From assembly GCA_016875875.1 (NCBI GenBank), contig VGOP01000003.1:98687-162686 (forward strand): 64,000 bases of DNA, written 5' to 3'. The position numbers were made by a program, and so were the translations under genes. Below are positions 10,655 through 64,000 of the stretch, in pieces. Source of the DNA: Chloroflexota bacterium. GTDB lineage: Bacteria > Chloroflexota > Dehalococcoidia > GIF9 > UBA5629. Under the pieces are notes generated by a model. That model worked only from the letters and a program-made list of their open reading frames with translations. It did not search any database and was not told the origin of the DNA. How positions within the stretch are numbered: the stretch's first letter is position 1; each line of letters begins with the position of its first letter.

Positions 10655-10657
10655 TTT

Positions 10658-12024: not shown

Positions 12025-12050
12025 GGCTCCCCTTTCCTGAACGTACTTTC

Positions 12051-13195: not shown

Positions 13196-13222
13196 AATCA
13201 GCTCCGTACTTATAGTAGAGAA

Positions 13223-13281: not shown

Positions 13282-13326
13282 GTTTTTCTCCTTACAAAGG
13301 AGAGGGGGATTAAGGGGGTGAGGTTG

Positions 13327-15137: not shown

Positions 15138-15354
15138 CGCCAAGCCTCACCATCTCCTCCAATATCTTCAGTGTCTCCTGGGCTTCGGCTTCGTCGATAA
15201 CGTTTATGGCATAGCCGGTGTGTAGCAGGACATAATCGCCGACCTTGGCCTCCGGGGTAAGCATTATGCTGACTCGGCGTTTTACACCGCCGATTTCCAC
15301 CTCAGCTTCATTGCCGTCTATCGAAGTAACCTGTACTGGAACAGCTAAACACAT
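15124..15354 (-). CDS. hypC: Hydrogenase maturation factor HypC
   Basis: N-terminal MCLAVP motif, 76 aa. Confidence 0.85.
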   Translation of the reverse strand: MCLAVPVQVTSIDGNEAEVEIGGVKRRVSIMLTPEAKVGDYVLLHTGYAINVIDEAEAQETLKILEEMVRLGDEAE

Positions 15355-15364
15355 AGTTTTCCTT

Positions 15365-17668: not shown

Positions 17669-17819
17669 AAACAAATGAATTGTACTTCAGGCGAGTGCCG
17701 AGGGCAAATTTGAAATCTTTTCTTCGCAGATTCGCCTACACCTGCTTGACAGCGATGATATATGGTGCTACGATAGCCTCGTTATCCGAGGCATAACACA
17801 TTATGTTAACTGGAAAGGC

Positions 17820-32313: not shown

Positions 32314-33348
32314 CTATGAATCTTCCACTTTTGTGGCGCCAGTGACACTCACAATTTCCGGGTCCATGCCGGATAGTTTGGCACATTGTTCCAGTTCACG
32401 CACCGTGTCTTTGCCCATAAGCGGCATATTGGCATATTCCCAGGCGATACCTAGTCTGCGGTACTTATCGCGACAGAGATTGTTAAAGGCGCACAGTTCC
32501 CATCGCTCGACGACGCCCTGAAGGTTTTTGGCGATGAAAGCGCCGAGGCTGGTGATGTTATCACATGTGGCTGTTGCTTCAGGAATGAGTGGTGTTCTAA
32601 TCCACAGTACTTTTTCAGGAGCCCTATTCAGGATATAGTCACGAATATATAGAAGGTTGTCGAAAATCCTCTGGTTATACTGCCCGGTGAAATTGTAGTG
32701 CTTTTCTAGTTCTGCTTCCTTCAAATCAAACAGAACGATATCGGTATAGGGCAAAACTTTTTCCAGAGACCCGCTGGGACAAACGCCGCAGGTATCAAGA
32801 GCGGTGTTGATTCCTCTTTCCTTGAGGCGGCGGAGCAATGCAGCGGCAAAACCAGGTTGCATCATAGGTTCTCCACCGGAAAGGGTGACACCGCCGCCCG
32901 ACTTCTCAAAATATATCTGGTCTTTGAGCAACTCATCGAAAAGCTCAGCCAGGCTGACTCGCCTGCCCAGAAGCTCCATGGCATTCGCCGGACAGGCTTC
33001 AGCACATTCCCCACAGCCGTTGCAAACTTCGCGGTCAATCACAACTCCCTGTTCTGTCTTGCACAGACAACCTAGGAGGCATACTTTGATGCAGGTACCG
33101 CAGCCGATACACTTGTTTTCCAGCCACTGTATCTGTGGCTCTATCGATATGCTTTCGGGGTTGTGGCACCACAGGCATCTTAGCGGGCATCCCTTGAAGA
33201 ATACCGTGGTGCGTATACCGGGCCCGTCTTCAGTGGAGAACCTCTGCAAGTGCAGTATCAGCCCACTCTGGCTCTTGTCTATACCTTCCAGGGCTGCCTC
33301 TTGGGTTACCACCCGGTCATCAGATATAACGGTCTTTTTGCTTACCAT
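32314..33348 (-). CDS. Glycyl-radical enzyme activating enzyme (radical SAM; with two auxiliary ferredoxin-like 4Fe-4S motifs), AE1
   Basis: CPLRCLWCHNPES radical-SAM CxxxCxxC, plus CIGCGTCIKVC and CNGCGECAEACP. Confidence 0.85.
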   Translation of the reverse strand: MVSKKTVISDDRVVTQEAALEGIDKSQSGLILHLQRFSTEDGPGIRTTVFFKGCPLRCLWCHNPESISIEPQIQWLENKCIGCGTCIKVCLLGCLCKTEQGVVIDREVCNGCGECAEACPANAMELLGRRVSLAELFDELLKDQIYFEKSGGGVTLSGGEPMMQPGFAAALLRRLKERGINTALDTCGVCPSGSLEKVLPYTDIVLFDLKEAELEKHYNFTGQYNQRIFDNLLYIRDYILNRAPEKVLWIRTPLIPEATATCDNITSLGAFIAKNLQGVVERWELCAFNNLCRDKYRRLGIAWEYANMPLMGKDTVRELEQCAKLSGMDPEIVSVTGATKVEDS

Positions 33349-33369
33349 ACTTATACTTAAGCAGCCTTA

Positions 33370-35901: not shown

Positions 35902-36006
35902 TCAATAACTAAGTCGTCTTGTAAACCATCAGTGAATTAGCTGCTATGGTGGAAAAACTATATCATAAGCAGGCTAAAACTACCAACCACCTGCTTCGCT
36001 CTTTAC

Positions 36007-36933
36007 CTAGTTCCCAACCACCTCAAAATCTTCGAATATAGCCAGACACTCTTTCACGCGTGACCGTGACATCCAGGTGGTCATTTTCGTGTCTTCGGTG
36101 TAGCTGTTGTGAACACCAAGCTTTTCTGATTTCTCAATCCATAAGGGATTGTAGTGGAGCAGGGCCACTTTTCTAACCTTATTTCCCTTCAAAAATGAGG
36201 CAACCGCTTCCAAATTCTCCCGCCTATCGGTGATGCCAGGAATAAGGGCAATGCGGGGTAAAATTTGAACACCGTCCTTTTTTTGGGAAGCCTGGTACAG
36301 CTCCTTGAAGTTATGCAATATACGCTCGTTGCTCACCCCGCAATATCTTTTGTGCTCCTGTGGCTCGATTAGCTTGATATCATAATAAATCGAGTCCAGG
36401 TAGGGGTACAGCAATTCGAAGAAGGCAGCGCAATCGAAGTGGCCACATGTTTCAATCAGCGTCTGGATATTGAGTGACCTCAGTTTTTTTAACAGGTCCG
36501 CAGTAAACCTCATAAATAGTGTCGGCTCCCCGCCTGACAAGGTTACGCCTCCACCCGAGGTAACAAAAAAGGGAACGTCCTTTGTTATTGTCTCGATGAC
36601 TTCTTCGATTTCCATGTCACGTCCTACCTTTGTCACGGCATCGGCAGGACAGACCTCGGCGCATTTGAAACAGAGAGTGCACTTGTGTCGGTCAATGAAA
36701 TCTGGGTTATCGCGTGAAAGCGCCTCGGGTTCACACACGTTTATGCAACTGTTGCAGCCAATGCATTCTTTTCTATCCCAGCCTAGTTCATGCCCCACAT
36801 ATTTGCATTCGGGGTTGTGGCACCAAACACAGGAAAGTGGGCATCCCTTAAAGAAGATCACCGTACGTATGCCCGGCCCGTCATCGAGCGAATTGCCCTT
36901 TATATCAAGGATGAGAGGTTTCTTAAATCCCAT
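36007..36933 (-). CDS. Glycyl-radical enzyme activating enzyme, AE2
   Basis: CPLSCVWCHNPE plus CIGCNSCINVC and CTLCFKCAEVCP. Start moved to ATG (MGFKKPLILDIKG...) giving a short overlap with the GRE2 stop; the track start lies within GRE2. Confidence 0.85.
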   Translation of the reverse strand: MGFKKPLILDIKGNSLDDGPGIRTVIFFKGCPLSCVWCHNPECKYVGHELGWDRKECIGCNSCINVCEPEALSRDNPDFIDRHKCTLCFKCAEVCPADAVTKVGRDMEIEEVIETITKDVPFFVTSGGGVTLSGGEPTLFMRFTADLLKKLRSLNIQTLIETCGHFDCAAFFELLYPYLDSIYYDIKLIEPQEHKRYCGVSNERILHNFKELYQASQKKDGVQILPRIALIPGITDRRENLEAVASFLKGNKVRKVALLHYNPLWIEKSEKLGVHNSYTEDTKMTTWMSRSRVKECLAIFEDFEVVGN

Positions 36934-40290: not shown

Positions 40291-40302
40291 AACTTGTTGG
40301 TA

Positions 40303-41439
40303 ATGGCCATGGGTTGGCAGTGGATAATACTAATCTTAATAATCCCTATCGTGCTTGTCGTAGTCCTGTTGACTAAGCCAGTCCAGACCGGTCTCAGAAC
40401 CATCGCTTTGCTAATAGATTTAGGTGTCAGCTATAGATGGAAAACCAACGCTATTCCCAAAAGCATAGTTATCTCTGAGGTAACATATCCCTGTGGCAAC
40501 CGGGATATTGTTGCCAATTTATATCGTCCCAATGACCGAGGCCGACACTCGGGCATAATCCTGGCTCATGGCGCTGTTAAAGATGGCAAAGATGATCCAG
40601 CCCTGCTGCTAGCAGGCCAAAGCTTGGCACGTGCTGGGTATATCGTTCTGGTGCCTCAACTTGATAACCTGGCTAAGTTTCGACTCCACCAGGGTGATAT
40701 CGAGGCTTTAGTCATCAGTTTTCAATATATCTCGGGACAAGAATTCACTAGCGGGAAAATAGGGATGATAGGCATCTGCCTAAGCGCGCCACTGGTGTTT
40801 CTTGCTGCCACCGAGCCGAGTATAAGCCATGATATATCCGTTATCGGCTACTGGGGTGGTTACTACAACATCAATGATTGGTTGGGGGCTGTGATTACAG
40901 GACACTACTTTGATGAAGGTGAAACCAAACCGTGGAAACCCCGCATTTTTTTGACGGAAGAACTCCCCAGGTGGCTCATCGAGCTTATGCCTGAATCTTC
41001 GGACAAGTCCTATCTTGAGGAGATGCTGAGAGGAGACTCCGTGGATTTTGCCAGGAGTGACCTCTCTCCCACAGGACAAGCTATGCATGAACTGCTTACC
41101 AATCGCGATCCCGCTCGAGCAGGAGACCTCTGGGCAGAGCTCGACCCAGAGATCCAGCAGACGCTTGATGGCTTATCGCCACACCTGAGGATTAATCAGC
41201 TCCAGACAAAGATAGCTATTATCCACACCTTTACCGACGATGTCATACCCTGGGTAGAGTCTAGCAAGCTGGCCGAAGTCATTGAGGATGAAAAAGAGAT
41301 TTACTTCAAGGTATTTCGCCAGTTCTACCACGTCAGCATCGAGGACTTGTTAAAGGCACGAATATCCAATCTCCACAATGCCACCTCAGAGGCTTTCCAG
41401 TTCTACCTCTACATGTGCCGTATTTTCTATCAGTTGTGA
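40303..41439 (+). CDS. Membrane-anchored alpha/beta-hydrolase-fold protein (dienelactone-hydrolase-like), hypothetical
   Basis: N-terminal TM helix; HGAVKDG...; candidate nucleophile elbow GICLSAP (Cys or Ser). Weak family assignment. Confidence 0.45.
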   Translation: MAMGWQWIILILIIPIVLVVVLLTKPVQTGLRTIALLIDLGVSYRWKTNAIPKSIVISEVTYPCGNRDIVANLYRPNDRGRHSGIILAHGAVKDGKDDPALLLAGQSLARAGYIVLVPQLDNLAKFRLHQGDIEALVISFQYISGQEFTSGKIGMIGICLSAPLVFLAATEPSISHDISVIGYWGGYYNINDWLGAVITGHYFDEGETKPWKPRIFLTEELPRWLIELMPESSDKSYLEEMLRGDSVDFARSDLSPTGQAMHELLTNRDPARAGDLWAELDPEIQQTLDGLSPHLRINQLQTKIAIIHTFTDDVIPWVESSKLAEVIEDEKEIYFKVFRQFYHVSIEDLLKARISNLHNATSEAFQFYLYMCRIFYQL

Positions 41440-44372: not shown

Positions 44373-45170
44373 CTAGCTATATGCCGAAATGAAGTCCCGC
44401 AATGCTTTAATGTATTGTTCCATGCCACCTGAGAAAATGGTGTTGTGGTCGACCCCAGGGATTATGAGCAAGCGTTTGTCTTTGGCAGCAATACTGTCAT
44501 AAAGCGCCTTGCCTTCCTCAACGGGCACTATCTGGTCATACTCACCATGCATAACTAAGGTGGGAAGAGAAATTTTCCGAATAAGTTTAAGGCTGGAAGG
44601 CGTCTTCGGCACATAGATACCAAGAGCTTCGAGCGGAAAGCCTAAATATACAAATAGGTTGAATACATTGGCAAAGCCGCTCTCTATAATCAGACCACTG
44701 AGCTGATTCTGGTAATGCGAGGCCAGCTCAATAGCAGAAGCACTGCCTAGAGAGCGACCCATAAGAAAGAGGTTTCCTGAAAACCCCTTCTCTTTCAATA
44801 CTCGCTTAAAGCCCTCAAATATAGGATGGGCATCCTTCATCATGCTGGTGAGCGTGGGCTTGCCTCCACTCCTACCATAGCCTCTGTAATCAGCTACAAA
44901 AAGATTAAGCCCAATCTGGTTATAAATAGAGCCAATGGGCTCGTAATCGCTGGCTATCTCACCGTTACCATGAAAGAACAGAACATTTGGGTATTTCTTA
45001 TCACCAAAATAGAAGCAATAGGAAACGGAGGTCGCCTTATCAACCAGAACGGTGTCAGCAATGACATTAGCTGCTGCTGATATCTCAAAGGAGTCTTTTC
45101 GAGGGTAAAAAATAAATTGCAAAATTTCCGGTTTATCTAGCGCTTCAAGCTCATGCCAAGGCTCAGCCAT
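44373..45170 (-). CDS. Alpha/beta hydrolase (S9/BAAT-like), hypothetical
   Basis: Nucleophile elbow GRSLGS, HGEYDQIVP, C-terminal VDHN. Start moved to ATG (MAEPWHE...) preceded by TAGGAGG; the track ORF extends upstream through a hairpin region. Confidence 0.6.
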   Translation of the reverse strand: MAEPWHELEALDKPEILQFIFYPRKDSFEISAAANVIADTVLVDKATSVSYCFYFGDKKYPNVLFFHGNGEIASDYEPIGSIYNQIGLNLFVADYRGYGRSGGKPTLTSMMKDAHPIFEGFKRVLKEKGFSGNLFLMGRSLGSASAIELASHYQNQLSGLIIESGFANVFNLFVYLGFPLEALGIYVPKTPSSLKLIRKISLPTLVMHGEYDQIVPVEEGKALYDSIAAKDKRLLIIPGVDHNTIFSGGMEQYIKALRDFISAYS

Positions 45171-45228
45171 GATACCTCCTAATACTGTTGACTTTTGTTG
45201 CTCATTACAATTTTGCCATATGTAGCGC

Positions 45229-45270
45229 GACCCTTTGGGGTCGCTTTTTGAAGCGAGGCTAAAGCCTCGC
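45229..45270 (+). terminator. Tandem GC-rich hairpins (GCGACCC-TTTG-GGGTCGC followed by TTTTTG; GCGAGGC-TAAA-GCCTCGC)
   Basis: Read directly. Looks like an intrinsic terminator on the + strand although no + strand gene ends nearby. Lies between two minus-strand genes. Confidence 0.3.
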
Positions 45271-45303
45271 AACTACACAACCGAAATCCAACAGTGCCTA
45301 TCG

Positions 45304-45759
45304 CTAAATCTTTATTATCTCCCCTTTAACATCTTCCCCAATTGTCAGGATACCAAAGGACTGCCATCCTGGCCCGGGATTAAAAAAGAGAACTCCTCCA
45401 ATGTGTTCAATCTTGGCCCGGTGACTATGTCCGTATATGATGATATCTACATCGTCAAATAGCTCCCTCACCCTGTGCTCTATGCCTTCCGGGCCACCCC
45501 ACCCGTGGGTAAGCCCGATTTTCCTGCCTCCGACCACCAAAAGCTCCTTATCTGGTAGCAAGCTTCTGAGTTTCATCGAATCCACGTTACCGTGTACCGC
45601 CTTCACCCCACCCAGCCGTTGCAGCCCTTCAAGGACCGATGAGCCAACAAAGTCACCAGCGTGGACGATCAAATCAATATTTGAAAACGCCCTGATGATC
45701 TCCTGGGGTATCTCTTCTGCCAGATGAATGTGGGTATCAGAAAGCACACCGATTCTCAT
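45304..45759 (-). CDS. Metallophosphoesterase (YfcE/MJ0936-like phosphodiesterase)
   Basis: MRIGVLSDTHIH...HAGDF...GNVD...GHSH motif series. Confidence 0.75.
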   Translation of the reverse strand: MRIGVLSDTHIHLAEEIPQEIIRAFSNIDLIVHAGDFVGSSVLEGLQRLGGVKAVHGNVDSMKLRSLLPDKELLVVGGRKIGLTHGWGGPEGIEHRVRELFDDVDIIIYGHSHRAKIEHIGGVLFFNPGPGWQSFGILTIGEDVKGEIIKI

Positions 45760-47105: not shown

Positions 47106-49565
47106 CTACTCAGCCTTAGCCTTGTCGCCTCCCTTATCATCCCCCTGATGGACACAGGCAATTGAGACCACACTGTCATCCTGTTCCAGTCTCTTCAAAT
47201 GTACCCCTTGGGTAGCTCTGCCCTGAAGCGAAACTTCTTCATCAACAGAGATACGGATGACAATGCCCTTGGCTGAAATGATAATAACGTGCTGATTTGG
47301 AGGGACAAGGTTAGCTGCAATAACCTTGCCTGTCTTTTCATTGACTCGATGAGCAATTACCCCTTTGCCACCCCGAGAGTAGAGAGGAAAGTTCCGCACG
47401 CGGCTACGCTTGCCAAAGCCTTTCTCCGTAACCGTAAGCAGAGCAGCCTCACGAAAGATGGCACCCATCGCCACCAGACGGTCACCAGGGCCGAGCCTGA
47501 TACCACGCACTCCACCACTAGTCCGAGAGGCCGGTCGCAAGCCCTTTACAGCAAACCTGATACCTTGGCCGTTTTGAGTTACCAAAATGACTTCACCTTT
47601 TTGGGTCACTACCTCAGCCGCGACCAACTCTTCATCACCTCGAAGTTTCATGGCAATAAGCCCGCTGCTTCTGACCGAAGCAAATTTGTCAAAGCTTGTC
47701 TTCTTCACTACGCCTTTCGAAGTAGCCATAACCATAAACAAGCCGGGGGTAAAATCTTTTACCACCACCAAGGCGGTTATTTGTTCCCTTGGGTCAACAG
47801 GCACCAAGTTAGCCAGAGCTGTTCCTTTCGTCGTTCGCGATAAATCCTGGGAGATATCATAACATCTAAGCCGGTAAACCTTACCCCGATTGGTAAACAG
47901 CAGTAAATTATCATGAGTATCAGCCACCACAAGATGTTTCACCATATCAGTTTCCCGGGTGACCATTCCCGTAACGCCCACGCCTCCTCTATGCTGTTTA
48001 TGATAAGTTATAGCCGGTATTCTCTTTATGTACCCCTGTTCGCTCAGCGTAATCGCCACATCCTGATGGGGGATAAGGTCCTCGTCCTGAAATTCCTCAG
48101 CCTCTTCCCGCTTAATCGCAGTACGCCGACCATCACCATACCCCTTCTTAAGCTCGGTGACATCCTGCTTAATAAGAAAGAGTATTTTCTTCGGATTCAC
48201 CAGAAGGTCTTCGAGATAAGCGATGTTCTTTACCACCTCGCTATACTCGTCGACTATTTTCTTCTGCTCCAGCTGTGCCAACCGACGTAGCTGCATATCA
48301 AGGATGGCCTGGGCTTGAATCTGTGATAGCCCAAACTTCTCCATTAAATTGGATCGAGCTGAATCGGCGGTCTCCGCCTTTCGGATGGTCTGAATAACCT
48401 CATCCAGGCGGTCAAGGGCAATTCTGAAGCCTTCAAGAATATGGGCTCGGTCCTTCGCCTTCTGGAGGTCAAACTGGGAGCGGCGAGCAATAACCACCCG
48501 GCGAAAATCTATGTAGCAAGTCAAAGTTTCTTTAAGATTAATGACTCGAGGCTGCCCATCAACCAGAGCCAGCATGTTAATGAAGAAAGACGATTGCATA
48601 GATGTATACTTGTAGAGATTGTTGGACACTTTGATAGGTTGAGCATCCTTTCTCAGCCCTATAACTACCCTCATACCATGGCGGTCTGATTCATCGCGAA
48701 CCTCACTTATCCCCTCGATCCGCCTTTCCCTTGCCAGTTCAGCTATCCTTTCCACCAAAGCGGCTTTATTGGTCTGATAAGGAAGTTCGGTTATGACCAA
48801 TTGCTGACGTCCGCCTCTCAGGTTTTCATCGGTGACTTTAGCCCGAACCACGACCTTACCTTGTCCACTGACATAAGCGCTCTTAATACCCTGCCGGCCT
48901 AAAATAATGCCTCCGGTGGGGAAATCCGGCCCCTTCACAATCTTCATCAAATCATCGACATCAGCCTCAGGGTTATCTATAAGATAATTAATAGCGTCAC
49001 ATACCTCACTGAGGTTATGAGGCGGTATGTTGGTAGCCATACCCACAGCGATACCTGATGAGCCATTCACCAGCAGATTGGGTGATCTGGCTGGTAAAAC
49101 CGTTGGCTCCTTCAAGCTATCATCAAAATTAGGCATGAAATCAACGGTATCTTTATCAATATCAACCAGCATTTCCTCGGCAATTTTCCCCAGGCGAGCT
49201 TCGGTATAACGCATAGCGGCTGGTGGGTCATCGTCCATACTGCCAAAATTGCCCTGTCCGTCAACAAGTCTATACCTCATGGAAAAATCCTGCGCCATTC
49301 TCACCATGGCCTCATATACAGGGGCATCTCCGTGAGGATGATACTTACCAAGAACCTCACCGACTATGCGAGCGCTCTTTTTATACGAACTGGTATGCCG
49401 GAGACCCAGCCCATCCATAGCATAGAGGATTCGCCGATGTACCGGTTTCAAGCCATCGCGCACATCCGGCAGGGCTCGGGAGACTATGACACTCATGGCA
49501 TAGTCAAGGTAGGAGCTCTTCATCTCCTCTTCAATGATAACTGGCTTAACTACTCCAACTTCCAT
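47106..49565 (-). CDS. gyrA: DNA gyrase subunit A
   Basis: [40 protein letters not shown], catalytic Tyr region, C-terminal beta-pinwheel repeats. Confidence 0.95.
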
Positions 49566-53493: not shown

Positions 53494-53570
53494 CGGGGCG
53501 TAGCGCAGTCTGGTAGCGCGCAGCGTTCGGGACGCTGAGGTCGGAGGTTCGAACCCTCTCGCCCCGACCA
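53494..53570 (+). tRNA. tRNA-Pro (anticodon CGG)
   Basis: Acceptor stem CGGGGCG/CGCCCCG, D-arm TAGCGCAGTCTGGTAGCGC, anticodon loop TTCGGGA (CGG), T-arm GGTTCGAACCC, discriminator A and encoded CCA; 77 nt. Confidence 0.9.
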
Positions 53571-54521: not shown

Positions 54522-55229
54522 TTACCTTCGACCCATGCCCAAGGCAATCAAAACAAAATAGAAAAGCTGAGCCACCGCCTGGAGTGTAGCAGCGACATAC
54601 GTCAAAGCCGCAGCCGATAGAACAGCACTGGCTCCGTCATACTCCTGAGTAGAAACCATGCCGGTGCTGCGTAACATTTGCCTCGCCCGATTGCTGGCAT
54701 TATATTCCACAGGCAAGGTAATCAGGCTGAAAATCACCGCTAATGAAAAGAGAAAAACGCCGGCCCAGACTACAGTCATACCGAACTTGGCACTAAACAT
54801 AACCAATAATAAACCCAGGATGACAAAGATATAACCGAGAGTACTACCCACATTAGCCGCCGGCACTAAAGACGTTCGAAATTTCAGAAAGGCATAGCCA
54901 GTCTTATCTTGAACGGCATGCCCTACTTCGTGAGCCACTATCCCTAATGCAGCCACAGATGGAGTATTAGCTACTGCCGGGGAAAGGCGCAACACCTTTT
55001 TGCTCGGGTCATAGTGGTCACCCAGCCGGCTTTTCACCCCTTCAACTCTAACATCATTCAAGCCGTTGGCACGAAGCAACCTTTCGGCTGCTTCAGCCCC
55101 GGTGACACGCTGTGAATTAGCCATCTTGGAATACTTTTTAAATGCTGAATTCACCTTTGCCTGAGCGTAAATCATAAAAATAAAAGGTGGCAGCATAATG
55201 AGAAACCACATTGGGTCAAAGAAAAACAT
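54522..55229 (-). CDS. Zinc metallopeptidase, YugP/Zn_peptidase_2 family (membrane-associated)
   Basis: HEVGHAVQD (HExxH) motif, flanking TM helices. Confidence 0.7.
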   Translation of the reverse strand: MFFFDPMWFLIMLPPFIFMIYAQAKVNSAFKKYSKMANSQRVTGAEAAERLLRANGLNDVRVEGVKSRLGDHYDPSKKVLRLSPAVANTPSVAALGIVAHEVGHAVQDKTGYAFLKFRTSLVPAANVGSTLGYIFVILGLLLVMFSAKFGMTVVWAGVFLFSLAVIFSLITLPVEYNASNRARQMLRSTGMVSTQEYDGASAVLSAAALTYVAATLQAVAQLFYFVLIALGMGRR

Positions 55230-55282
55230 CTTCTACATCCCTCCTGAATAACACTCTATTCTAGTCAAAATATAAAGTCATG

Positions 55283-56227
55283 TCAAAGTAAGCGGCTGCC
55301 GATAAAATCACGCTGCCCGCGCACAAACTCCTCTGCTGACACCTCACGCTTCCCCTCCAATTGGACTCTCAGCAGCCCTAGAGCTCCATCTCCAGTTTCA
55401 ACTCCAACTATCGCCGGCGCTGATGGAGACAAGGCTATCACCTTGCCAGGTTCGCCAGACTTCTCGCCATACAGCGGCACGGCCTTACAAATTTTCAATC
55501 GCTTACCGTGCCACCAGGCATAGCACCCCGGCCAGGGGTCAAAGGCGCGGATTCGTCGCCATAATTCCAAAGTTGAAAGCCGCCAGCCTATCTCTCCATC
55601 GCCTTTAGAGATGACTTTACTATAACTAGCCCGGCTTTCGTCTTGAGGTTGCGGCTTAATTCGCCCATCAATCCACAAAGGCAACGTCTCCATGAGCAAT
55701 TGTGCCCCAACTTGAGCTAACTTAACGGCGAGTAAACGAGTAGTATCATCAGCCGATATAGAGACTTCCCTCTGGCTCAAAATGGGGCCGCTATCCAAAC
55801 CAACGTCCAGCAACATAATTGTGACACCCGTAATTTCATCACCTTGTAAAATGGCCGTGGCTATTGGGGAAGCACCCCGATGCCTAGGTAGAAGGGAAGG
55901 GTGGACATTAAGGCAGCCGAATTTGGGTAAAGCCAATACTTCTGGCGGTAGAATATGCCCAAAAGCTGCCACCACAATCAAGTCAGGAGCAAAACTATTT
56001 AACTGGTCAATGGCGCTACTGGTCTTCAAGTTGTCCGGCTGAATCACCTGCAGCCCATTAGATAGAGCCAGCTGTTTTACCGGAGAGGACATAACCGCCT
56101 GTCCTCTTCCAGCCTTACTATCTGGCCGCGTATATACGGCAACCACCTGGTAAGTGCTGCGAATCAAAGCCTCCAAACTGGGAACAGCGAACTCCGGAGT
56201 GCCCATAAAAATGATGTTTTTTGCCAT
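55283..56227 (-). CDS. fmt: Methionyl-tRNA formyltransferase
   Basis: MAKNIIFMGTPEFAVPSLEAL...HPSLLPRHRGASPI... Confidence 0.9.
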   Translation of the reverse strand: MAKNIIFMGTPEFAVPSLEALIRSTYQVVAVYTRPDSKAGRGQAVMSSPVKQLALSNGLQVIQPDNLKTSSAIDQLNSFAPDLIVVAAFGHILPPEVLALPKFGCLNVHPSLLPRHRGASPIATAILQGDEITGVTIMLLDVGLDSGPILSQREVSISADDTTRLLAVKLAQVGAQLLMETLPLWIDGRIKPQPQDESRASYSKVISKGDGEIGWRLSTLELWRRIRAFDPWPGCYAWWHGKRLKICKAVPLYGEKSGEPGKVIALSPSAPAIVGVETGDGALGLLRVQLEGKREVSAEEFVRGQRDFIGSRLL

Positions 56228-56480
56228 GACAAATAAATTTTACCAACTTTCTCCATTATGTCAAAAAACCCCTTGACACCCAAACAGACCGCTGTGTTAC
56301 TCTTAAGGAGTTGTGGTGCGGGTCCTCGGTCTATTTTTTTACTAATCTTTTTTTAATAATCCGCTAAATATCGCTTGCGGTCCAGCATATAGACTCTGGG
56401 ACTCAAAAGCTCGAAAATACCTCTGGGTGGGGGGTTGTTTCATTTGCGGGGATTTTCAAACTAAATTTGGCAGGAATGAG

Positions 56481-57851
56481 TTGAAGTCAGCACAAGAAAT
56501 CTGGGAAGCCGCTCTAGGAGAACTTCAACTCCAAGTCAGTAAGCCGAATTATGATACTTGGCTTAAGGACACCACCGGTATAAGCTATAAAGAAGACGTC
56601 TTTGTTATCGGTGTCCCTAATATCTTCATCGCCGAATGGCTAAGAAGTCGCCTACATTCTCTGATTAAAAGGACTTTAACCGGCGTTACTGGCAAGACCA
56701 TTGACGTCCAATTTGCAATTCGGCCTCTCAACCAGGCTATCTGCTCAACAGCCGCTTACCAGGCTGACGGCGGGATAAGCGCCAGGCTTAAGGAACCAGT
56801 AACAGCAGCATTCAGGCTCAATCCAAAGTACACCTTTGACAGCTTTGTAGTCGGGGAATGCAACCGCCTGGCTTACTCAGCAGCTTTAGAGATTTCCGAA
56901 GATCCCGGGAATAGATACAATCCCCTCTTTATCTACGGTGACACCGGCACAGGCAAGACTCATCTGCTGCATGCCATTGGACACACAGTTAAAGCTAAGG
57001 GCTTGCGCATGCTTCTGGCTAGCGCCGAGCAGTTTACTAACCAATTTGTAATCGCCCTCAAGAACAACAGGATCGATGACTTCCACCGTAAGTTCAGGAG
57101 TGCCGACTGCTTGCTGGTCGATGATATTCAATTCCTGAGTGGCAAAGCGCAAACCCAGGAATGCTTGTTATACATTTTCAACGACCTATATGAAAATAAC
57201 TGCCAAATTGTAGTTACCAGCGACCGACCACCAAGAGCCATATCCTCGGTCACCAAGAAATTAAGGTCCCGGCTTGAGTGGGGGCTAATCGCTGATTTTG
57301 GACCACCAGATTTGGAAACGCGCTTGGCCATCCTGAGAGTTAAAGCGAAGCAATTTAACATGTCCCTTCCACCGGAAGTTCTACGGTTTCTAGCAACAGA
57401 GTTCCAGCACAATATCCGGGAATTAGAAGGTGCTCTTAATAGAGTAGTCACTTACTCAAGGCTGAGCGGCACAAAATTAGATATGCACTTAACCACACAG
57501 TCACTGGCAGACATAATACCGAAAGACGGTAGGCAAGAAGCCACGCTTACACCAAAGCGCATAATGACCGCTGTGGCTAACTACTACGGCATTGACCTTG
57601 AAGGACTAACAGGCAAACGGAGAGATAAGAAAACCGCATTAGCCCGTCAGGTCACCATGTACCTATTACGCGAGCAAAACCACTGCGGCCTGGCTGAAAT
57701 CGGCAAAATATTAGGAGGCCGAGACCACACAACAATAATGCACGGCTGCGAAAAAATCGCTGCGGAAATAGACGTTAATCCCCAGCTCCACAATTCAATC
57801 AAAGAGATCCGCCAAAAATTAACCCCCAAAAGAACCTCATCCGCATTTTGA
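56481..57851 (+). CDS. dnaA: Chromosomal replication initiator DnaA
   Basis: AAA+ Walker A GDTGTGKTHLL, Walker B LLVDDIQF, sensor/arginine finger region, C-terminal DNA-binding HTH (..HTTIMHGCEKI..). Start uncertain: in-frame GTG at 56427 (track) or TTG at 56481, preceded by AGGA. Confidence 0.9.
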   Translation: MKSAQEIWEAALGELQLQVSKPNYDTWLKDTTGISYKEDVFVIGVPNIFIAEWLRSRLHSLIKRTLTGVTGKTIDVQFAIRPLNQAICSTAAYQADGGISARLKEPVTAAFRLNPKYTFDSFVVGECNRLAYSAALEISEDPGNRYNPLFIYGDTGTGKTHLLHAIGHTVKAKGLRMLLASAEQFTNQFVIALKNNRIDDFHRKFRSADCLLVDDIQFLSGKAQTQECLLYIFNDLYENNCQIVVTSDRPPRAISSVTKKLRSRLEWGLIADFGPPDLETRLAILRVKAKQFNMSLPPEVLRFLATEFQHNIRELEGALNRVVTYSRLSGTKLDMHLTTQSLADIIPKDGRQEATLTPKRIMTAVANYYGIDLEGLTGKRRDKKTALARQVTMYLLREQNHCGLAEIGKILGGRDHTTIMHGCEKIAAEIDVNPQLHNSIKEIRQKLTPKRTSSAF

Positions 57852-57859
57852 TTTAGGCG

Positions 57860-58042
57860 CTTGTGGAAAAACAGCACTGGATAGTGGATAATTCTGCCAA
57901 CTCTGTTGATAAACATCGCAGATTGCAATACCAATTTTTTCCATTCATAATATATTTCCATCCACATAATAGTGTAACTTACATATTATTATTAGCTTAC
58001 CTATATAATAGAAGATAAAAGATTTATAAGGACATTACTTTA
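57860..58042. other. Putative oriC segment: AT-rich block with clustered DnaA-box-like 9-mers between dnaA and obg
   Basis: TGTGGAAAA (57862), TAGTGGATAA (57882), TGTTGATAA (57904), CCATCCACA (57958), TAGTGGATAG (58041), each 7-8/9 versus TTATCCACA/TGTGGATAA; about 70% AT from 57890 onward. Confidence 0.5.
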
Positions 58043-59101
58043 GTGGATAGAGTAGACATTTTAGTATGTGGAGGAGATGGTGGAGATGGAATAGTCAGCT
58101 TTCGGCATGAGAAGTTTGTACCGCTTGGTGGTCCTGATGGTGGGGATGGTGGGAAGGGTGGAAGCATCTACATTATTGCTGATAGGAGCGCTAACACTTT
58201 GGATTACTTTAAACGTAAGAAGCGTTTTAAGGCGGCATCCGGCAAGAGCGGAGGGAAGCAGAAAAAACATGGTGCCAAGGGTGATGACCTTATAATTAAA
58301 GTGCCTTTAGGGACAATGGTATTTCTTAAAGAAGAGGAACAGGAAGGGCTGCTGGCTGATTTGAGCCAACAAGGACAAAAAGTTCTGGTGGCTAAAGGTG
58401 GTCGTGGTGGGTTGGGTAATGTCCATTTTGCTACATCTAGGAATCAGGCTCCTAAAACGTCTACTAAGGGTGAGCCTGGCGAAGAACGCCGTCTTACCCT
58501 TGACCTCAAACTTATTGCCGATGTTGGCATTATTGGCTATCCCAGCGTAGGTAAATCCACCCTTTTGGCTGCCGTATCTGAAGCCAAGCCGAAAATAGCT
58601 AATTATCCTTTCACCACTCTTGAGCCAGCTCTTGGCGTGGTTGAAGTGGATATGAAGACATTCGTTTTGGCGGAGATCCCCGGGCTTGTGGATGGCGCTC
58701 ATCTAGGTAGAGGGCTGGGGCACGAGTTTCTGCGCCATGCTGAGAGGACTAAGGTTTTGCTTCACCTGATTGATGGTAGCTCGCCGAATATAGCTGATAA
58801 CATAAATAATCTGAACACGGAGCTGGCTTTATATAAGCCAGGGATGGCTCAAAAGCCTCAGCTTGTGGTGGTAAACAAAGTGGATTTACCGGAGGTTCAA
58901 GCTCAGTTGCCAGAGATTAGACAGCTTTTCAGCTCTCTGGGGATAAAGGCCTTCTTTATATCAGCGATTACTAAGCAGGGTTTGTCTGAGCTTATATCAG
59001 AAATAATCAGGATGTTGGATATGGTTCAAGAAGAGGTGGCTGCTCTAGAGGCGCCAATAGCTGTTTTTCGACCTGAGCCCAAGGTTAGGCGGGACAAATG
59101 A
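58043..59101 (+). CDS. obg: GTPase Obg
   Basis: Gly-rich Obg fold (GGDGGDGIVSFRHEKF...GGPDGGDGGKGG), G1 GYPSVGKST, G3 DIPG, G4 NKVD; GTG start. Confidence 0.9.
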   Translation: MDRVDILVCGGDGGDGIVSFRHEKFVPLGGPDGGDGGKGGSIYIIADRSANTLDYFKRKKRFKAASGKSGGKQKKHGAKGDDLIIKVPLGTMVFLKEEEQEGLLADLSQQGQKVLVAKGGRGGLGNVHFATSRNQAPKTSTKGEPGEERRLTLDLKLIADVGIIGYPSVGKSTLLAAVSEAKPKIANYPFTTLEPALGVVEVDMKTFVLAEIPGLVDGAHLGRGLGHEFLRHAERTKVLLHLIDGSSPNIADNINNLNTELALYKPGMAQKPQLVVVNKVDLPEVQAQLPEIRQLFSSLGIKAFFISAITKQGLSELISEIIRMLDMVQEEVAALEAPIAVFRPEPKVRRDK

Positions 59102-59706
59102 ACATAGGTGTATTAGGCGGCACTTTTGACCCTATTCATTTGGGACATCTTGTCATAGCTGAAGAAGCCAGATTGAGGCTCAGCCTGGCCAAGATTTTCT
59201 TTGTTCCCGCAGGGCAACCGTGGCTTAAAACAGGTAGGACCATTACCCCAGCAGTGCACCGTGTAGAGATGGTGAAGCGGGCTATTACTACCAACCCTTA
59301 TTTTGAGCTTTCGGCTATCGAGGTAGACCGCCCCGGGCCTTCTTATAGTGTGGAGACCATAAATATTTTGCGGCAGCAATTAGGTGCCGAGGCAAGGATT
59401 TTCTTCTTAGTAGGCTGGGATAGCTTGCCTGAGCTCCCGGAGTGGAAGGAGCCGACCAAATTGATTCAGCTCTGTAAGTTGGTGGTTGTTACCAGACCGG
59501 GTTTTAGCCGCCCGGATTTAAAGACTTTGGAATCAGCTGTTCCTGGAATAACTCAGAGTGTGATCTGGCTGGATATATCGCCAGTTGACATCAGTTCCTC
59601 GGACATACGGAGGAGATTAGCTCAGGGGCTATCTATTCACGGCTTTGTGCCTGATGAGGTGGAGAGTTATATAGAAGAGCAGAAGCTATACCTGAAATGG
59701 AGATAA
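59098..59706 (+). CDS. nadD: Nicotinate-nucleotide adenylyltransferase
   Basis: MNIGVLGGTFDPIHLGHL (HxGH nucleotidyltransferase motif); ATGA overlap with obg. Confidence 0.85.
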   Translation: MNIGVLGGTFDPIHLGHLVIAEEARLRLSLAKIFFVPAGQPWLKTGRTITPAVHRVEMVKRAITTNPYFELSAIEVDRPGPSYSVETINILRQQLGAEARIFFLVGWDSLPELPEWKEPTKLIQLCKLVVVTRPGFSRPDLKTLESAVPGITQSVIWLDISPVDISSSDIRRRLAQGLSIHGFVPDEVESYIEEQKLYLKWR

Positions 59707-59717
59707 AGCCTGATGAG

Positions 59718-61652
59718 CTAGATATCCAGGTTTCTTACATTTCTGGCGTGGGCTTGGATGAACGATTTTCGTGGTGGGACTTCACTGCCCATCAACATAT
59801 GGAATATCCTGTCAGCGGATATGGCATCCTCGATTTCCACCTTGAGCAGAGTTCGTGATACCGGGTTCATGGTAGTCTCCCATAGCTGCTCAGCGCTCAT
59901 TTCTCCCAATCCTTTATAGCGCTGTATCTCCACTTTGTTACTTTTGAGCTCCTTAAGTTTGGCTTCCTTTTCCTTCTCCGAGTAAATCCAGCATAGTTCC
60001 TTTCCTGCTTGAATGCGATAGAGAGGCGGCTGGGCAATGAACAGGTGACCTTGACTTATTAGCTCTGTCATGTTGCGGTAGAAAAAGGTAAGAAGAAGCG
60101 TTCGGATGTGGGAGCCGTCGACATCAGCATCAGTCATAATGATTATGCGGTGGTAGCGCAGTCGGGAAAAGTCGAGCTGGTCACCGATGCCGGCTCCTAC
60201 CGCGGTGATAATGGCCCGGATTTCTTCATGGTCCAGAATCTTATCTTTAGGGGCCTTTTCTACATTAAGTATTTTACCTCGTAGTGGTAAGATGGCTTGG
60301 AAACGGCGGTCTCGACCCTGCTTGGCTGAACCTCCGGCTGAGTCACCCTCAACCAGGTAAAGCTCACACTCGCGAGGGTCAGTCTCTGAACAGCTAGCTA
60401 GCTTTCCGGGCAGAGTGCCGGCTTCTAATCCGCTTCTCTTGAAGATAAGGTCGCGAGCCTTTCGGGCTGCCTCTCTAGCTTTGGCCGAAATTAGGCACTT
60501 ATCTATGATTGATTTGGCATCATCGGGGTGCTGCTCCAAATACAGGGAAAGTCCATCAGCTACTATGGCTTCGACCTGGGTTTTTATTTCGGGATTGCCT
60601 AGTTTGGCTTTGGTTTGCCCCTCAAACTGGGGTTCAACGAGCTTGACACTGATGACTGATGTCAGCCCATCACGAACGTCATCACCTATCAGATTGGGAT
60701 CGGAGTCCTTTAACAGCTTGTTTTTCCGTGCATAGTCATTGAGGACACGGGTTAGTGCTGAGCGGAACCCGGTAAGATGGCTGCCGCCGTCTATGGTATT
60801 GACGCAGTTGGCAAAGCTAAGTGTAGACTCGGAAAAGCCATCGTTGTATTGAAGAGCTACTTCTACAACGGTGCTGTTCGTTATGCCGGATATGTAGACG
60901 GGCTGGCGATGGAGGACTTGCCGGTCTTTATTGAACCGACTGACAAGGCTAGCTATGCCACCTTCAAATAGGAATGTTGCCTCTTGGTCAGTTCTCTCAT
61001 CTTTGAGACTTATTTCCAGGTTCTTGTTCAAAAAGGCTAGCTCTTTTAGGCGCTGGCGGATTGTATCGAATTCATAATTAATCTCACTGAAGATTTCAGT
61101 GTCAGCCAGGAAAGTGATGGTAGTCCCCGTTTCATCGGTATCGCCGATAGTTTCTAAATCGCAGGTAGGATCACCCCGTTGATATTTTTGGCGATAGATT
61201 TTACCCTGGCGTTTGACTTCGGCATTGAGCCAGGAAGATAGGGCATTTACTACTGAAGCGCCAACACCATGCAATCCGCTGGATACTGTATAGGTGCGAC
61301 CGCCGAATTTAGCTCCGGCGTGGAGTCTGGTCATGACTGCTTCCAATGCTGAGGTGTTGGTTGCCGGGTGGACGTCCACCGGTATGCCCCGGCCATTGTC
61401 GATAACTGTTACCGAGTTGTCTTCATGAATTATTACCTCGGTTTTGTCACAGTAGCCGGCCATTGCCTCGTCTATGCTGTTGTAGACAATCTCATAGATC
61501 AGATGGTGCAGCCCATGTTCGTCAGTGCTGCCAATATACATGCCCGGGCGACGTCGCACCGCCTCCAGGCCATCGAGAATACGGATATCCTCGGCAGTAT
61601 AGTCTTCGAATGTATTGTTGGTTGTATTATTATTGTTAGCTTGTTGTGGCAT
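59718..61652 (-). CDS. gyrB: DNA gyrase subunit B
   Basis: GHKL ATPase motifs, Toprim EGDSAGGSAKQGRDR, ...PLRGKILNVEKA... Confidence 0.95.
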   Translation of the reverse strand: MPQQANNNNTTNNTFEDYTAEDIRILDGLEAVRRRPGMYIGSTDEHGLHHLIYEIVYNSIDEAMAGYCDKTEVIIHEDNSVTVIDNGRGIPVDVHPATNTSALEAVMTRLHAGAKFGGRTYTVSSGLHGVGASVVNALSSWLNAEVKRQGKIYRQKYQRGDPTCDLETIGDTDETGTTITFLADTEIFSEINYEFDTIRQRLKELAFLNKNLEISLKDERTDQEATFLFEGGIASLVSRFNKDRQVLHRQPVYISGITNSTVVEVALQYNDGFSESTLSFANCVNTIDGGSHLTGFRSALTRVLNDYARKNKLLKDSDPNLIGDDVRDGLTSVISVKLVEPQFEGQTKAKLGNPEIKTQVEAIVADGLSLYLEQHPDDAKSIIDKCLISAKAREAARKARDLIFKRSGLEAGTLPGKLASCSETDPRECELYLVEGDSAGGSAKQGRDRRFQAILPLRGKILNVEKAPKDKILDHEEIRAIITAVGAGIGDQLDFSRLRYHRIIIMTDADVDGSHIRTLLLTFFYRNMTELISQGHLFIAQPPLYRIQAGKELCWIYSEKEKEAKLKELKSNKVEIQRYKGLGEMSAEQLWETTMNPVSRTLLKVEIEDAISADRIFHMLMGSEVPPRKSFIQAHARNVRNLDI

Positions 61653-61872
61653 GGCTACAGAAAATCCTTCAATAAACTTTGTGATTCATCGGTAATTCTA
61701 GATTGGACATAATGGGAAAGCAGACAACCTGTCAATCCCACATTTAGTGCCTGCCAACCCCAACTGTACAAGGGATTGCATTGCCTTAATTTTACCACAT
61801 CTTCCCGGAAACTGAAAGGCCAAGATGGTTGTCTTGCTGGCCTAGCTGGCGAATAAGTGATTTTGATTCGGA

Positions 61873-62157
61873 CTAATGCAAACTGTCGTGCTTGCAGGCG
61901 TTCTGGAGAAGCTTGATTATGCTTGGGCCCTTAAGGTCTGTGGAGCCGCAACTCTCGCTGTCGAAATAGCGGCACACGGTGCAGGTCACGCTGTATTTGT
62001 TTACCTCGCTTATGTTTACGAAGAGGTCACAGTTCTCAGCGCTGCGGTCATACCACTCCTCAAGGACTTCGGCGGTCTGTGGGAAGTGAGACCTGAAGCT
62101 TTTGGAGATGAAGAAGCCGTAGCCAGCGGAGTCGCTTAAGGAGAGATAAATGCGCAT
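61873..62157 (-). CDS. Small Cys-containing hypothetical protein (94 aa), last gene of a 4-gene Cys-rich operon
   Basis: ORF only; Cys at ...NCDLF..., ...CTVCRY...SESCGS...ACKHD; 14 nt after the upstream gene. Confidence 0.3.
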   Translation of the reverse strand: MRIYLSLSDSAGYGFFISKSFRSHFPQTAEVLEEWYDRSAENCDLFVNISEVNKYSVTCTVCRYFDSESCGSTDLKGPSIIKLLQNACKHDSLH

Positions 62158-62171
62158 TTGCAGCCTCTTGG

Positions 62172-62762
62172 CTATATTGAGATGTGGAACTCACACATAC
62201 CGTTCTGTGGCAGTGTCTTCGGCATCTCGATATTTATGTGGTCGCCAGTCTTCTCTGCGGCAGCCTCAAAGCAGGCGAAGCAGAATCCTTTGCAAGGAAG
62301 GCCCTTTATGCCGACCTCCTCAAGCACCTTGTGTACCGCACAGGCAGAGACCTGAAGCACCAGTTCCTTGGTAGTTGCCCTGGATATATTCCAGCGGTCG
62401 GTAGGCCTCAGGCCAAAGATGGATAGCTCTACATATCTACTCAGGCGATGGGGGAAAGAGATACCTGTCTGCTTATACACCTTCTCCACCATCTCCCCGG
62501 TGCGGTCCTGGTATTTGGTGTCAGCTAGCTCGATGGTGAGCTTCATCAACTTCTTGCCCAAATCTTCGAGGGCCTTGTATGCCTCCTTCTCGTCCTTGCC
62601 TTGCAGGCTACTGACTACAGCTCCTATATCGAACTTTTGAGTAATTTCCTCTACCAGACCTTTATCTGCATCGAAGGGAAGGACTTTCCCTGGCTCTTCC
62701 AGGGTCAGCAATCTTTCCTTTAGTATCTTGCCATATTTCCAACCAGTGGTCATTTCTTTCAT
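62172..62762 (-). CDS. Hypothetical protein (196 aa) with C-terminal Cys cluster (CKGFCFACFE...GMCEFH)
   Basis: ORF, co-oriented and closely spaced with the ferredoxin gene. Confidence 0.35.
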   Translation of the reverse strand: MKEMTTGWKYGKILKERLLTLEEPGKVLPFDADKGLVEEITQKFDIGAVVSSLQGKDEKEAYKALEDLGKKLMKLTIELADTKYQDRTGEMVEKVYKQTGISFPHRLSRYVELSIFGLRPTDRWNISRATTKELVLQVSACAVHKVLEEVGIKGLPCKGFCFACFEAAAEKTGDHINIEMPKTLPQNGMCEFHISI

Positions 62763-62770
62763 ACCTCCGT

Positions 62771-63007
62771 TCAGAAGCTCACCTGAATGGCGCTCTTGGG
62801 ACAGACACTAACGCAGTCCATGCAGCCGGTGCATTTTTCGAAGCGGACCCCGGCCACGATGAACTGACTCGGGTCCATTTCTCTAAACTTTTGGGGACCC
62901 ACCTTGGTGGCAAGGCCCAAGACATGGGTTGGGCAAATGCGGAGGCACTTATGGCAGGAAAGTGGGTCAGTGCATTTCTTGTCATCTACGGTGATTGTTG
63001 GCAGCAT
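62771..63007 (-). CDS. 2x[4Fe-4S] ferredoxin (78 aa)
   Basis: CTDPLSCHKCLRICP and CTGCMDCVSVCP motifs. Start moved to ATG (MLPTITVDD) with GAGGG SD; the track ORF extends upstream. Confidence 0.7.
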   Translation of the reverse strand: MLPTITVDDKKCTDPLSCHKCLRICPTHVLGLATKVGPQKFREMDPSQFIVAGVRFEKCTGCMDCVSVCPKSAIQVSF

Positions 63008-63030
63008 GTTTAATCCCTCTCTGTAAGGTT

Positions 63031-63861
63031 TTACCAAGCATCGGCTAGGGCGGGTAGGCTGGCCCGTTCCACCAAGGTGATGGCATCCTGGGGGCATTCA
63101 GAGACACAAAGCCCACAACCAAAGCACTGGAACGAGTCAATATAAGCTTTATTCTGGCTGGGGGAGAAGCTGAGTGCTTTGAACTGGCAGCGGTGGATGC
63201 ATGAAGCGCAGCCACTACAAAGTTCAGTATCAACACGGGCCACATGGTGCCCTTTCCATAGGACACGTACATTGTAGTCCAGTGTGGTTCTTATGAAACT
63301 ACAATCGGGATAATCGCAGTTGCAAATTCCGCCTAGGTATGGGGTACCGAAGGTAGCCAGAGTCTGCACTAAGCCCCTCTTGTTCAGCTTGGTGACGATA
63401 TCTTTGGCTTCATCAGGGGTGAGGAACTGGATTCCACCTCGGTAGGTCTCAGGCCATCGCTCCCACTTATACATCCCTGACCCCATACCTATACAGGTGA
63501 AGTTCTCCTCGTCCGCCAGACCCAGCATGGAGCGGCGGCAGGCGCAGGTCATAATGGCGATGGGATAGATGGTATCAATGACCTTAAGGACATCCTCTAG
63601 GGTCACAACCTGCCCGAAGTGTGCAGTCCAGGAAAGCTGTTCCACATCGTGCTTGACCTTGGCAATGGCCTCATGGTCATTTCTGTCTAAAGCTTCCAGG
63701 AAGTCTCGGGTCAATAAAGACATTCCTCCAGCAGCTTGTGGGCCGGGCTCGAGACCTGCGGCCTCCTCTTTTCTGATTCTATATAGCTTTCTGGCGTAAT
63801 TTGCCGGGTTGAAATACCATCTCTCATAGCCTTCGGCGTAGCGCTCACACCATACACACAT
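63031..63861 (-). CDS. Fe-S protein of unknown family with C-terminal 2x[4Fe-4S] ferredoxin-like domain and N-terminal Cys motifs (MCVWCERY..., TCACRR..., CNCDYPDC)
   Basis: C-terminal CSGCASCIHRC ... CFGCGLCVSECP; the N-terminal domain is not recognised. Confidence 0.45.
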   Translation of the reverse strand: MCVWCERYAEGYERWYFNPANYARKLYRIRKEEAAGLEPGPQAAGGMSLLTRDFLEALDRNDHEAIAKVKHDVEQLSWTAHFGQVVTLEDVLKVIDTIYPIAIMTCACRRSMLGLADEENFTCIGMGSGMYKWERWPETYRGGIQFLTPDEAKDIVTKLNKRGLVQTLATFGTPYLGGICNCDYPDCSFIRTTLDYNVRVLWKGHHVARVDTELCSGCASCIHRCQFKALSFSPSQNKAYIDSFQCFGCGLCVSECPQDAITLVERASLPALADAW

Positions 63862-64000
63862 ATTTATTGGCCTCCTTGTTTCAAACTTCGTAGCAGATAG
63901 AGGATTGTTTTTAATGGCATCACTGTAACAGTGGGGGTCGTCTACTATGTAGATAGTCTAGATTAGGCTAGGCGAAATTGTCAACTTTGACGGTGTTTCT

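Follow-up and report, generated by a model that had tools for sequence, protein, structure and literature searches.

A predicted DnaA-dependent chromosomal replication origin in the dnaA-obg spacer of an uncultured Dehalococcoidales bacterium

Introduction

The locus described here raises the question of whether the short AT-rich spacer between the initiator gene dnaA and obg is the chromosomal replication origin (oriC) of an uncultured Dehalococcoidales lineage, or whether its DnaA-box-like sequences serve some other role. The window, meaning the whole 64,000-nt stretch of DNA that was analyzed (GCA_016875875.1, contig VGOP01000003.1, positions 98,687 to 162,686), has a GC content of ~0.49. 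The preliminary description of the locus had proposed a candidate oriC between dnaA and obg, a proposal now supported by conserved boxes, unstable AT-rich DNA, a local skew flip, and a match to a DoriC prediction. As judged from sequence comparison, there is good reason to regard the dnaA-obg spacer (~57852-58050) as a DnaA-dependent chromosomal oriC, predicted to lie on one side of dnaA only.

Gene neighborhood and assembly

The genes that frame the spacer are as follows.

47106-49565, minus strand: gyrA, 8 kb to the left
55283-56227, minus strand: fmt
56481-57851, plus strand: dnaA, the initiator gene (TIGR00362 DnaA, E=5e-145)
58043-59101, plus strand: obg, with a GTG start
59098-59706, plus strand: nadD
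58043-59706, plus strand: obg-nadD operon, right of the predicted origin and co-oriented with a rightward fork
59718-61652, minus strand: gyrB

Thus, fmt, nadD, gyrB, and gyrA, which had been named as neighbors of dnaA, were all recovered from the window ORFs. Read from left to right, three minus-strand genes (mazG, a Zn-peptidase gene, and fmt) are followed by the plus-strand genes dnaA, obg, and nadD (the nadD start overlapping the obg stop) and then by gyrB, again on the minus strand. The scanned window ORFs included no dnaN, the few left unscanned all being <125 aa, in line with the earlier remark that dnaN is not adjacent to dnaA. The further remark that this is slightly unusual did not hold, since dnaA and obg are adjacent in 22 of the 80 loci compared, all of them Dehalococcoidia or Chloroflexota by label, and the arrangement is therefore normal for Dehalococcoidia. 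The only tRNA gene in the 64 kb, tRNA-Pro(CGG) at 53494-53570 on the plus strand, lies between the minus-strand genes apgM and mazG and would be head-on to a leftward fork.

The closest DnaA proteins (82-86% identity) come from uncultured Dehalococcoidales MAGs. A contig from an independent JGI assembly (L081; Ga0194113_10010787, metagenome 3300020074) is 100% identical to window positions 56625-64000, indicating that the origin region is not an assembly artefact. Two of the relatives compared below, L007 and L014, come from this metagenome as well. This contig adds 3.5 kb rightward, comprising two more genes followed by rpsL and rpsG on the plus strand; as a short-read contig, it ends inside dnaA, at window position 56625.

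The dnaA gene and its upstream region

The longest dnaA ORF opens at GTG 56427. The true start is probably TTG 56481, which follows an AGGA ribosome-binding site and yields the N-terminus KSAQEIWEAAL; a TTG or GTG start at ...KSAQEIW is kept in relatives, and an ATG at 56476 runs into an in-frame TGA. Domain IV of the encoded protein can be aligned with DnaA proteins of known structure (8BTG and 1J1V) and retains KRR...RQ...GGRDHTT..H, with Ala at the position of E. coli P423. The assignment of base-contacting residues in this domain follows the 1J1V literature. Its DNA-binding domain IV being canonical, the window DnaA is regarded here as the predicted cognate initiator.

The preliminary description had also allowed for a stronger box cluster at another dnaA-adjacent site (56228-56426), which was contradicted by a scan at ≤2 mismatches that returned no boxes there. 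The entire fmt-dnaA spacer (56228-56480) has 0 boxes at ≤2 mismatches in the window and 0-2 weak ones in relatives, and was likewise rejected, both as an origin and as one half of a bipartite origin. What it contains instead are conserved divergent TTGACA promoters. In the window it forms a highly conserved block with back-to-back promoters: an fmt promoter on the minus strand (TTGACA-16-TAAAAT, 11/12, with TG) and a dnaA promoter on the plus strand (CCCTTGACAC...TGTGTTACTCT). Downstream of the dnaA promoter are ~30 conserved nt (GGAGTTGTGGTGCGGGTCCTCGGTCTATT), and a G-run (GGGTGGGGGG) precedes the dnaA ribosome-binding site. The conserved block before dnaA may be a conserved dnaA leader element; it has no match in Rfam.

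An Rfam search of 55000-60000 returned nothing in the dnaA-obg spacer. A weak hit to AsdA, an antisense RNA of dnaA mRNA, inside dnaA (56934-56999, minus strand; E=0.39) was dismissed as most likely due to chance, its 21.7 bits being far below the gathering score of 52. An intrinsic terminator was not detected 3′ of dnaA.

A cluster of DnaA boxes in the dnaA-obg spacer

The dnaA-obg spacer (57852-58042) is 191 bp long with a GC content of 0.30. Scanning of both strands with the 9-mer TTATCCACA located the following elements.

57852-58050, no strand assigned: candidate oriC as a whole, comprising the dnaA-obg spacer and the first obg codons
57862-57870, minus strand: DnaA box 1, TTTTCCACA, 8/9, 10 nt past the dnaA stop codon
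57883-57891, minus strand: DnaA box 2, TTATCCACT, 8/9, 21 bp from box 1
57904-57912, minus strand: DnaA box 3, TTATCAACA, 8/9, 21 bp from box 2
57958-57966, plus strand: DnaA box 4, CCATCCACA, 7/9, with its TTATCCACA form directed toward the AT-rich region, unlike that of any other box
58042-58050, minus strand: DnaA box 5, CTATCCACT, 7/9, overlapping the obg GTG start

The scan thus reproduced the five box-like 9-mers reported earlier with 7-8/9 matches in both orientations, three of them at 8/9 and two at 7/9. The extent assigned to the cluster (57860-58042) needed a small correction: the ~70% AT content was confirmed, but the last box extends 8 nt past the end coordinate. The AT-rich stretch is flanked by boxes 4 and 5, arranged as an inverted pair. 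Box 5 shares TAGTGGATA with box 2 and is matched to box 4 through inverted repeat I2; its role as a DnaA box is nonetheless uncertain, because its conservation may be purely coding (V/M-D-R-V).

The box cluster exceeds chance expectation (P<1/3000 at local composition). Three boxes with ≤1 mismatch fall within 60 bp, and 0 of 60 Markov-1 simulations of 64 kb reached three. At the composition of the spacer itself, the simulated mean for such boxes was 0.09 against 3 observed, with 0 of 3000 simulations reaching 3; for boxes with ≤2 mismatches, the simulated mean was 1.0 against 5 observed (P=0.0017). The spacer is also the top-scoring 200-bp box window of the 64 kb. The second-best (41172-41371) was rejected as an origin, being located inside an ORF (40294-41439) of normal GC content. 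Perfect TTATCCACA boxes occur in the window only at 20661-20669 and 41219-41227, both within ORFs (an adhE-like gene at 19849-21993 and the unknown ORF 40294-41439, respectively), the latter being part of the second-best box window, and are probably chance occurrences or minor DnaA-titrating sites.

Predicted unwinding element and candidate DnaA-trio array

Nearest-neighbor free energies place the least stable DNA of the entire 64 kb in the obg-proximal part of the spacer at each of three scales: 57943-58042 for 100 bp (z=5.1), 57966-58025 for 60 bp (z=4.7), and 57980-58009 for 30 bp (z=3.9). Within the 64 kb, GC content falls below 0.32 over 150 bp in the dnaA-obg spacer only. On thermodynamic prediction, therefore, an AT-rich unwinding element directly flanks the boxes. 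Two features were delineated in this part of the spacer.

57966-58042, no strand assigned: predicted DNA-unwinding element, AT-rich, the least stable duplex of the window
57983-57994, minus strand: candidate DnaA-trio array, top strand ATA TTA TTA TTA, bottom strand 3′-TAT AAT AAT AAT-5′

A published search rule for such elements (PMC8287927) calls for a box with ≤2 mismatches, an interval of 0-16 bp, and then three or more NAN trinucleotides when the strand is read 3′→5′. The trio consensus given there is 3′-GAT-5′, strongest at the box-proximal trio, and the commonest, not obligatory, arrangement is a tandem box pair separated from the trios by a short GC-rich spacer. The box orientation rule was taken from the supplementary BUS tables of the same paper, in which the B. 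subtilis top strand reads 5′-TTATCCACA AATCCACA GGCC CTACTATTACTTCTACTA. In the window, the candidate array begins 16 nt after box 4, and box 4 (7/9) with its 16-nt interval and four trios agrees with the search rule at the upper limit of the spacer length. No second tandem box follows box 4 in TAATAGTGTAACTTAC, and the 16-nt interval is AT-rich, not GC-rich. Inspection by eye for trio arrays flanking boxes 1-3 in their own orientation gave none that was convincing, leaving box 4 as the only one to qualify; box 5 agrees weakly with the loose NAN rule.

A perfect (NTA)x4 was found in 10 of 15 spacers (per-sequence shuffle P 0.007-0.04). Its position is 51-67 nt upstream of obg in the window as well as in the eight array-carrying close relatives. 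Position 1 of the triplets varies while TA is kept, as in L013 (GTA CTA CTA). The first trio base in the window is A or T, and A and T are conserved; CTA (GAT) trios occur in L013 and L005 only. The NTA block thus fits a DnaA-trio array, an assignment that is inferred because the array also overlaps a -10-like TATTAT.

Promoter-like elements within the spacer

A promoter scan gave two sigma-70-like hexamer pairs in the spacer.

57923-57951, plus strand: TTGCAA-17 nt-CATAAT, 9/12, a possible obg promoter with its start near box 4
57961-57989: TCCACA-17-TATTAT, overlapping box 4 and the NTA block

Both ATTG(C/A)AA and CATAATAT are conserved in a 12-sequence spacer alignment (A1, described below). 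With two conserved hexamer pairs in the spacer, an obg promoter is likely to lie inside the predicted origin, a function predicted here from sequence. The NTA block could accordingly be a -10 element, either instead of or besides a trio array.

A local switch in strand composition at the spacer

Across the window, cumulative GC skew reaches its lowest value at 57.85-58.0 kb, about 57.9 kb. Left of the spacer, plus-strand GC3 skew is negative in 10 of 11 genes between 45.3 and 57.85 kb, including dnaA (-0.28), which is read toward the site. Right of it, the skew is positive in obg (+0.32), nadD (+0.23), the minus-strand gene gyrB (+0.30), and ORF 61873-62157, as well as in rpsL and rpsG (from L081), with values close to zero or weakly negative in three other right-side genes. 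The glycine-rich (GGN) N-terminus of Obg accounts for some of the steep increase at 58.0-58.4 kb. GC3 skew changes from negative in dnaA to positive in obg, two genes of the same strand, in the window and again in 22 of 22 related loci, among them a clade whose DnaA is 47% identical and whose third positions are saturated. Such recurrence indicates that a persistent mutational or selective asymmetry changes sign at the spacer. Within the window and the 22 related loci, the local switch in strand composition falls exactly at the spacer.

Window positions 1-45 kb show no replication-type skew, the coding strand being C3-rich in either gene orientation; strong skew is therefore shown only for ~12 kb to the left and ~9 kb to the right, where the sequence covered comprises 6 kb of the window and 3.5 kb from L081. 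The behavior changes abruptly between a hydrolase gene (44373-45272) and a phosphoesterase gene (45304-45759), and from 45.3 kb to the predicted origin minus-strand genes are G3-rich. In the protein-position index, the genes 44373-45272 and 45304-45759 gave no record, with the right-hand gene on record. The 1-45 kb portion carries genes for hydrogenase, glycyl-radical enzymes, adhE, and similar functions. Regions 32314-39892 and 8599-17674 together encode a tandem pair of glycyl-radical enzymes (843 and 989 aa) plus their neighboring radical-SAM activase, and a NiFe hydrogenase with HycI, HypD, HypE-like, and HypF maturation genes. This portion may be a recently acquired or rearranged segment near the origin, or it may reflect an assembly join; the plasticity regions that flank the Dehalococcoides origin offer a possible parallel.

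Conservation in related genomes

The mazG-peptidase-fmt(-)/dnaA-obg-nadD(+)/gyrB(-) synteny is retained in close relatives. A more distant Dehalococcoidia clade keeps the dnaA-obg-nadD core, with mazG, the peptidase gene, and fmt absent within the flank compared. In the related loci, the best box window overlaps the dnaA-obg spacer in 20 of 22 cases, and the least stable 100 bp lies in the obg-proximal half of the spacer in 19 of 22.

Alignment A1 comprises 12 spacer sequences plus ~30 bp of coding flank on each side. Its mean column identity is only 61%, with invariant columns in boxes 1-3 (including the box 2 core GTG..AA), the ATTG..AA/CATAAT pair, box 4, the CTTA..TTATTA block, and the obg start. 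Box 1 occupies the same position in L001 (a relative with a closed genome, CP070642.1), L002, L003, L004, L008, L011, and L014. Closed genomes among the relatives are CP070642.1, with dnaA at ~1.691 Mb, and CP070630.1. The sequence and 21-bp spacing of boxes 1-3 are kept in L001, L002, L004, and L008, with partial retention in another five loci, and box 4 is conserved as ATCCACAT in most relatives. In the relatives that keep the boxes, the spacing, and the NTA block, the DnaA, Obg, NadD, Fmt, and MazG proteins are ~64-87% identical to those of the window. Taken together, these comparisons indicate that both the site and the architecture of the predicted origin are conserved in related genomes.

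Two groups of relatives depart from the window layout. In L007 (7354-7574) and L016 (7431-7725), TGTGGATAA-type boxes are replaced by TGTTCATAA / TGTTAATAA copies, with a spacing of ~11 bp in L007, showing lineage-specific drift of the box sequence inside the same putative origin slot. In the more distant clade, the spacers of L018, L019, L021, and L023 (e.g., L018:7432-7804) are GC-rich (0.53-0.64). Members of this clade (L018-L023) carry TTATCCNNN-CAAACCACC, a GC-rich spacer, and CTACGACGGCTACTAC, oriented toward obg as box 4 is. In L018, L019, L021, and L023, the block reads TTATCCNNN-CAAACCACC-spacer-CCTACGACGGCTACTAC, followed by GTATAATG before obg. On its sequence, this layout appears to be a more canonical box/box/trio arrangement with a separate putative -10 element.

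Comparison with known origins

In the literature searched, no experimentally mapped origin was found for Dehalococcoidia, predictions only; both origins compared here are predictions. DoriC lists a predicted oriC for Dehalococcoides mccartyi strain 195 (ORI10010023) and for strain CBDB1 (ORI10010158), both used in PMC8287927, where the DoriC-based elements are placed at 1629-1661 in strain 195 and at 1888-1913 in CBDB1. When metagenome contigs were searched with the 195 32-mer from that paper, it was located in the dnaA-obg spacer of L082, a D. mccartyi-like contig with the same synteny as the window (mazG-peptidase-fmt(-)/dnaA-obg(+)), indicating that the window site is the orthologue of an already predicted origin type. 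As in the window, the L082 spacer is AT-rich (GC 0.32); it carries a CTTATTATTAGTA block and two TTTCGATAA boxes, 20 bp apart and oriented as window boxes 1-3. The two sites differ in spacer length (191 bp in the window versus 332 bp), and the DnaA proteins are only 42% identical. They differ also in box sequence. Ori-Finder proposes the box TTATCGAAA for Dehalococcoides, and L082 has two matches to it, whereas 57840-58050 of the window has 0 matches at ≤1 mismatch, its boxes being near the E. coli consensus instead.

The predicted origin shares with the B. subtilis type (the dnaA-dnaN incC region) a position immediately downstream of dnaA, with dnaA read toward the unwinding site. Its layout also resembles the B. 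subtilis basal unwinding system (boxes 6/7, DnaA-trios, and an AT-rich region) in having a TTATCCACA-oriented box followed by period-3 3′-NAT-5′ repeats on the bottom strand and then AT-rich DNA. In contrast to B. subtilis, the downstream gene is obg rather than dnaN, and the predicted window origin is not bipartite, since no box cluster lies upstream of dnaA. The box that faces the candidate trios is a single 7/9 box instead of a tandem pair, and it is followed by a 16-nt AT-rich spacer, where B. subtilis has ~4 GC-rich bases after the second box. In addition, the candidate trios are AAT/TAT and not GAT, and the boxes with the best matches (1-3) point in the direction opposite to the unwinding element.

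The E. coli oriC consists of a DNA-unwinding element (DUE) and left and right DnaA-oligomerization regions, with two oppositely oriented groups of boxes, one of which faces the DUE. The window site is similar in having a box cluster beside an AT-rich element and two box groups of opposite orientation. The outward orientation of boxes 1-3 is reminiscent of E. coli oriC, on which two DnaA sub-complexes assemble in opposite orientations. The window site has none of the 13-mer repeats of E. coli oriC. Unlike the E. coli origin, it is located next to dnaA and not between gidA and mioC, and its boxes are 21 bp apart rather than in 11-bp arrays.

Alternative explanations

The box-like 9-mers might be considered a by-product of base composition, since AT-rich DNA yields more partial TTATCCACA matches and two of the five boxes reach only 7/9. 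This explanation is hardly credible, given that none of the 3000 simulations produced three boxes at ≤1 mismatch, that the phasing is exactly 21 bp, and that the boxes are conserved position by position in relatives. It is also very improbable that the spacer is a datA/DARS-type locus that titrates or recycles DnaA without origin activity. A compact box cluster adjoining dnaA is compatible with such a locus and is the one specific point in its favor; however, loci of this type need no adjacent unwinding element and would not be expected to coincide with a skew switch, and the 64 kb hold no second, better origin candidate.

An explanation with more in its favor, though still unlikely, is that the spacer is a DnaA-regulated promoter or leader of obg-nadD and/or a 3′ control region of dnaA, with the true oriC elsewhere. 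DnaA bound at boxes 1-3, upstream of the -35 element, and at box 4, at the transcription start, would then tune obg expression. In B. subtilis, clusters of DnaA boxes are found also at promoters outside the origin. The spacer contains two conserved sigma-70-like hexamer pairs, these -35/-10-like hexamers could alone explain several of the conserved blocks, and dnaA is followed by no detected terminator. The 1-45 kb portion, which lacks replication-type skew, further allows that the local skew might not derive from replication. However, a regulatory role leaves unexplained both the least stable DNA of the 64 kb and the exact skew flip in the window and 22 relatives, and the whole-genome-based DoriC predictions for closed Dehalococcoides genomes choose the orthologous spacer. 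The two roles are, moreover, compatible, promoters within oriC being common. An origin that may contain an obg promoter is thus the preferred reading of the spacer.

Proposed mechanism

In the proposed mechanism, DnaA would bind the three near-consensus boxes (57862, 57883, and 57904) right after its own gene, the 21-bp phasing placing them on one helix face. Box 4 (57958-57966), in the opposite orientation, would point toward the AT-rich half, and a DnaA-ATP oligomer could extend from it onto the NTA block (57983-57994) and open the unstable stretch 57966-58042, where the helicase would be loaded. Replication forks would then leave leftward through dnaA and rightward through obg-nadD, and obg transcription would start within the origin, from the promoter-like hexamers.

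A more tentative suggestion, which we consider possible but rather doubtful, is that in Dehalococcoidia the unwinding element doubles as the obg promoter, 5′ leader, and start codon, such that DnaA occupancy couples initiation to Obg. If so, the putative transcription start would coincide with box 4 and the GTG codon with box 5, and initiation would be mechanically coupled to the growth-rate GTPase Obg. Such coupling would also be the reason why a conserved dnaA-oriC-obg order replaces the usual dnaA-oriC-dnaN.

Conclusions

The general understanding of bacterial origins is unchanged by this analysis, which yields a sound but ordinary annotation. As a prediction, it places the replication origin of an uncultured freshwater Dehalococcoidales lineage and points to the dnaA-obg spacer as a conserved origin slot across the class. 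Since its boxes are near-consensus TTATCCACA and not TTATCGAAA, the site may help to refine the DnaA-box motif used by origin finders for this group. The predicted position would be of use in rotating and checking closed MAGs, in coverage-based estimates of growth rate (peak-to-trough ratio), and in annotating Dehalococcoidia genomes.
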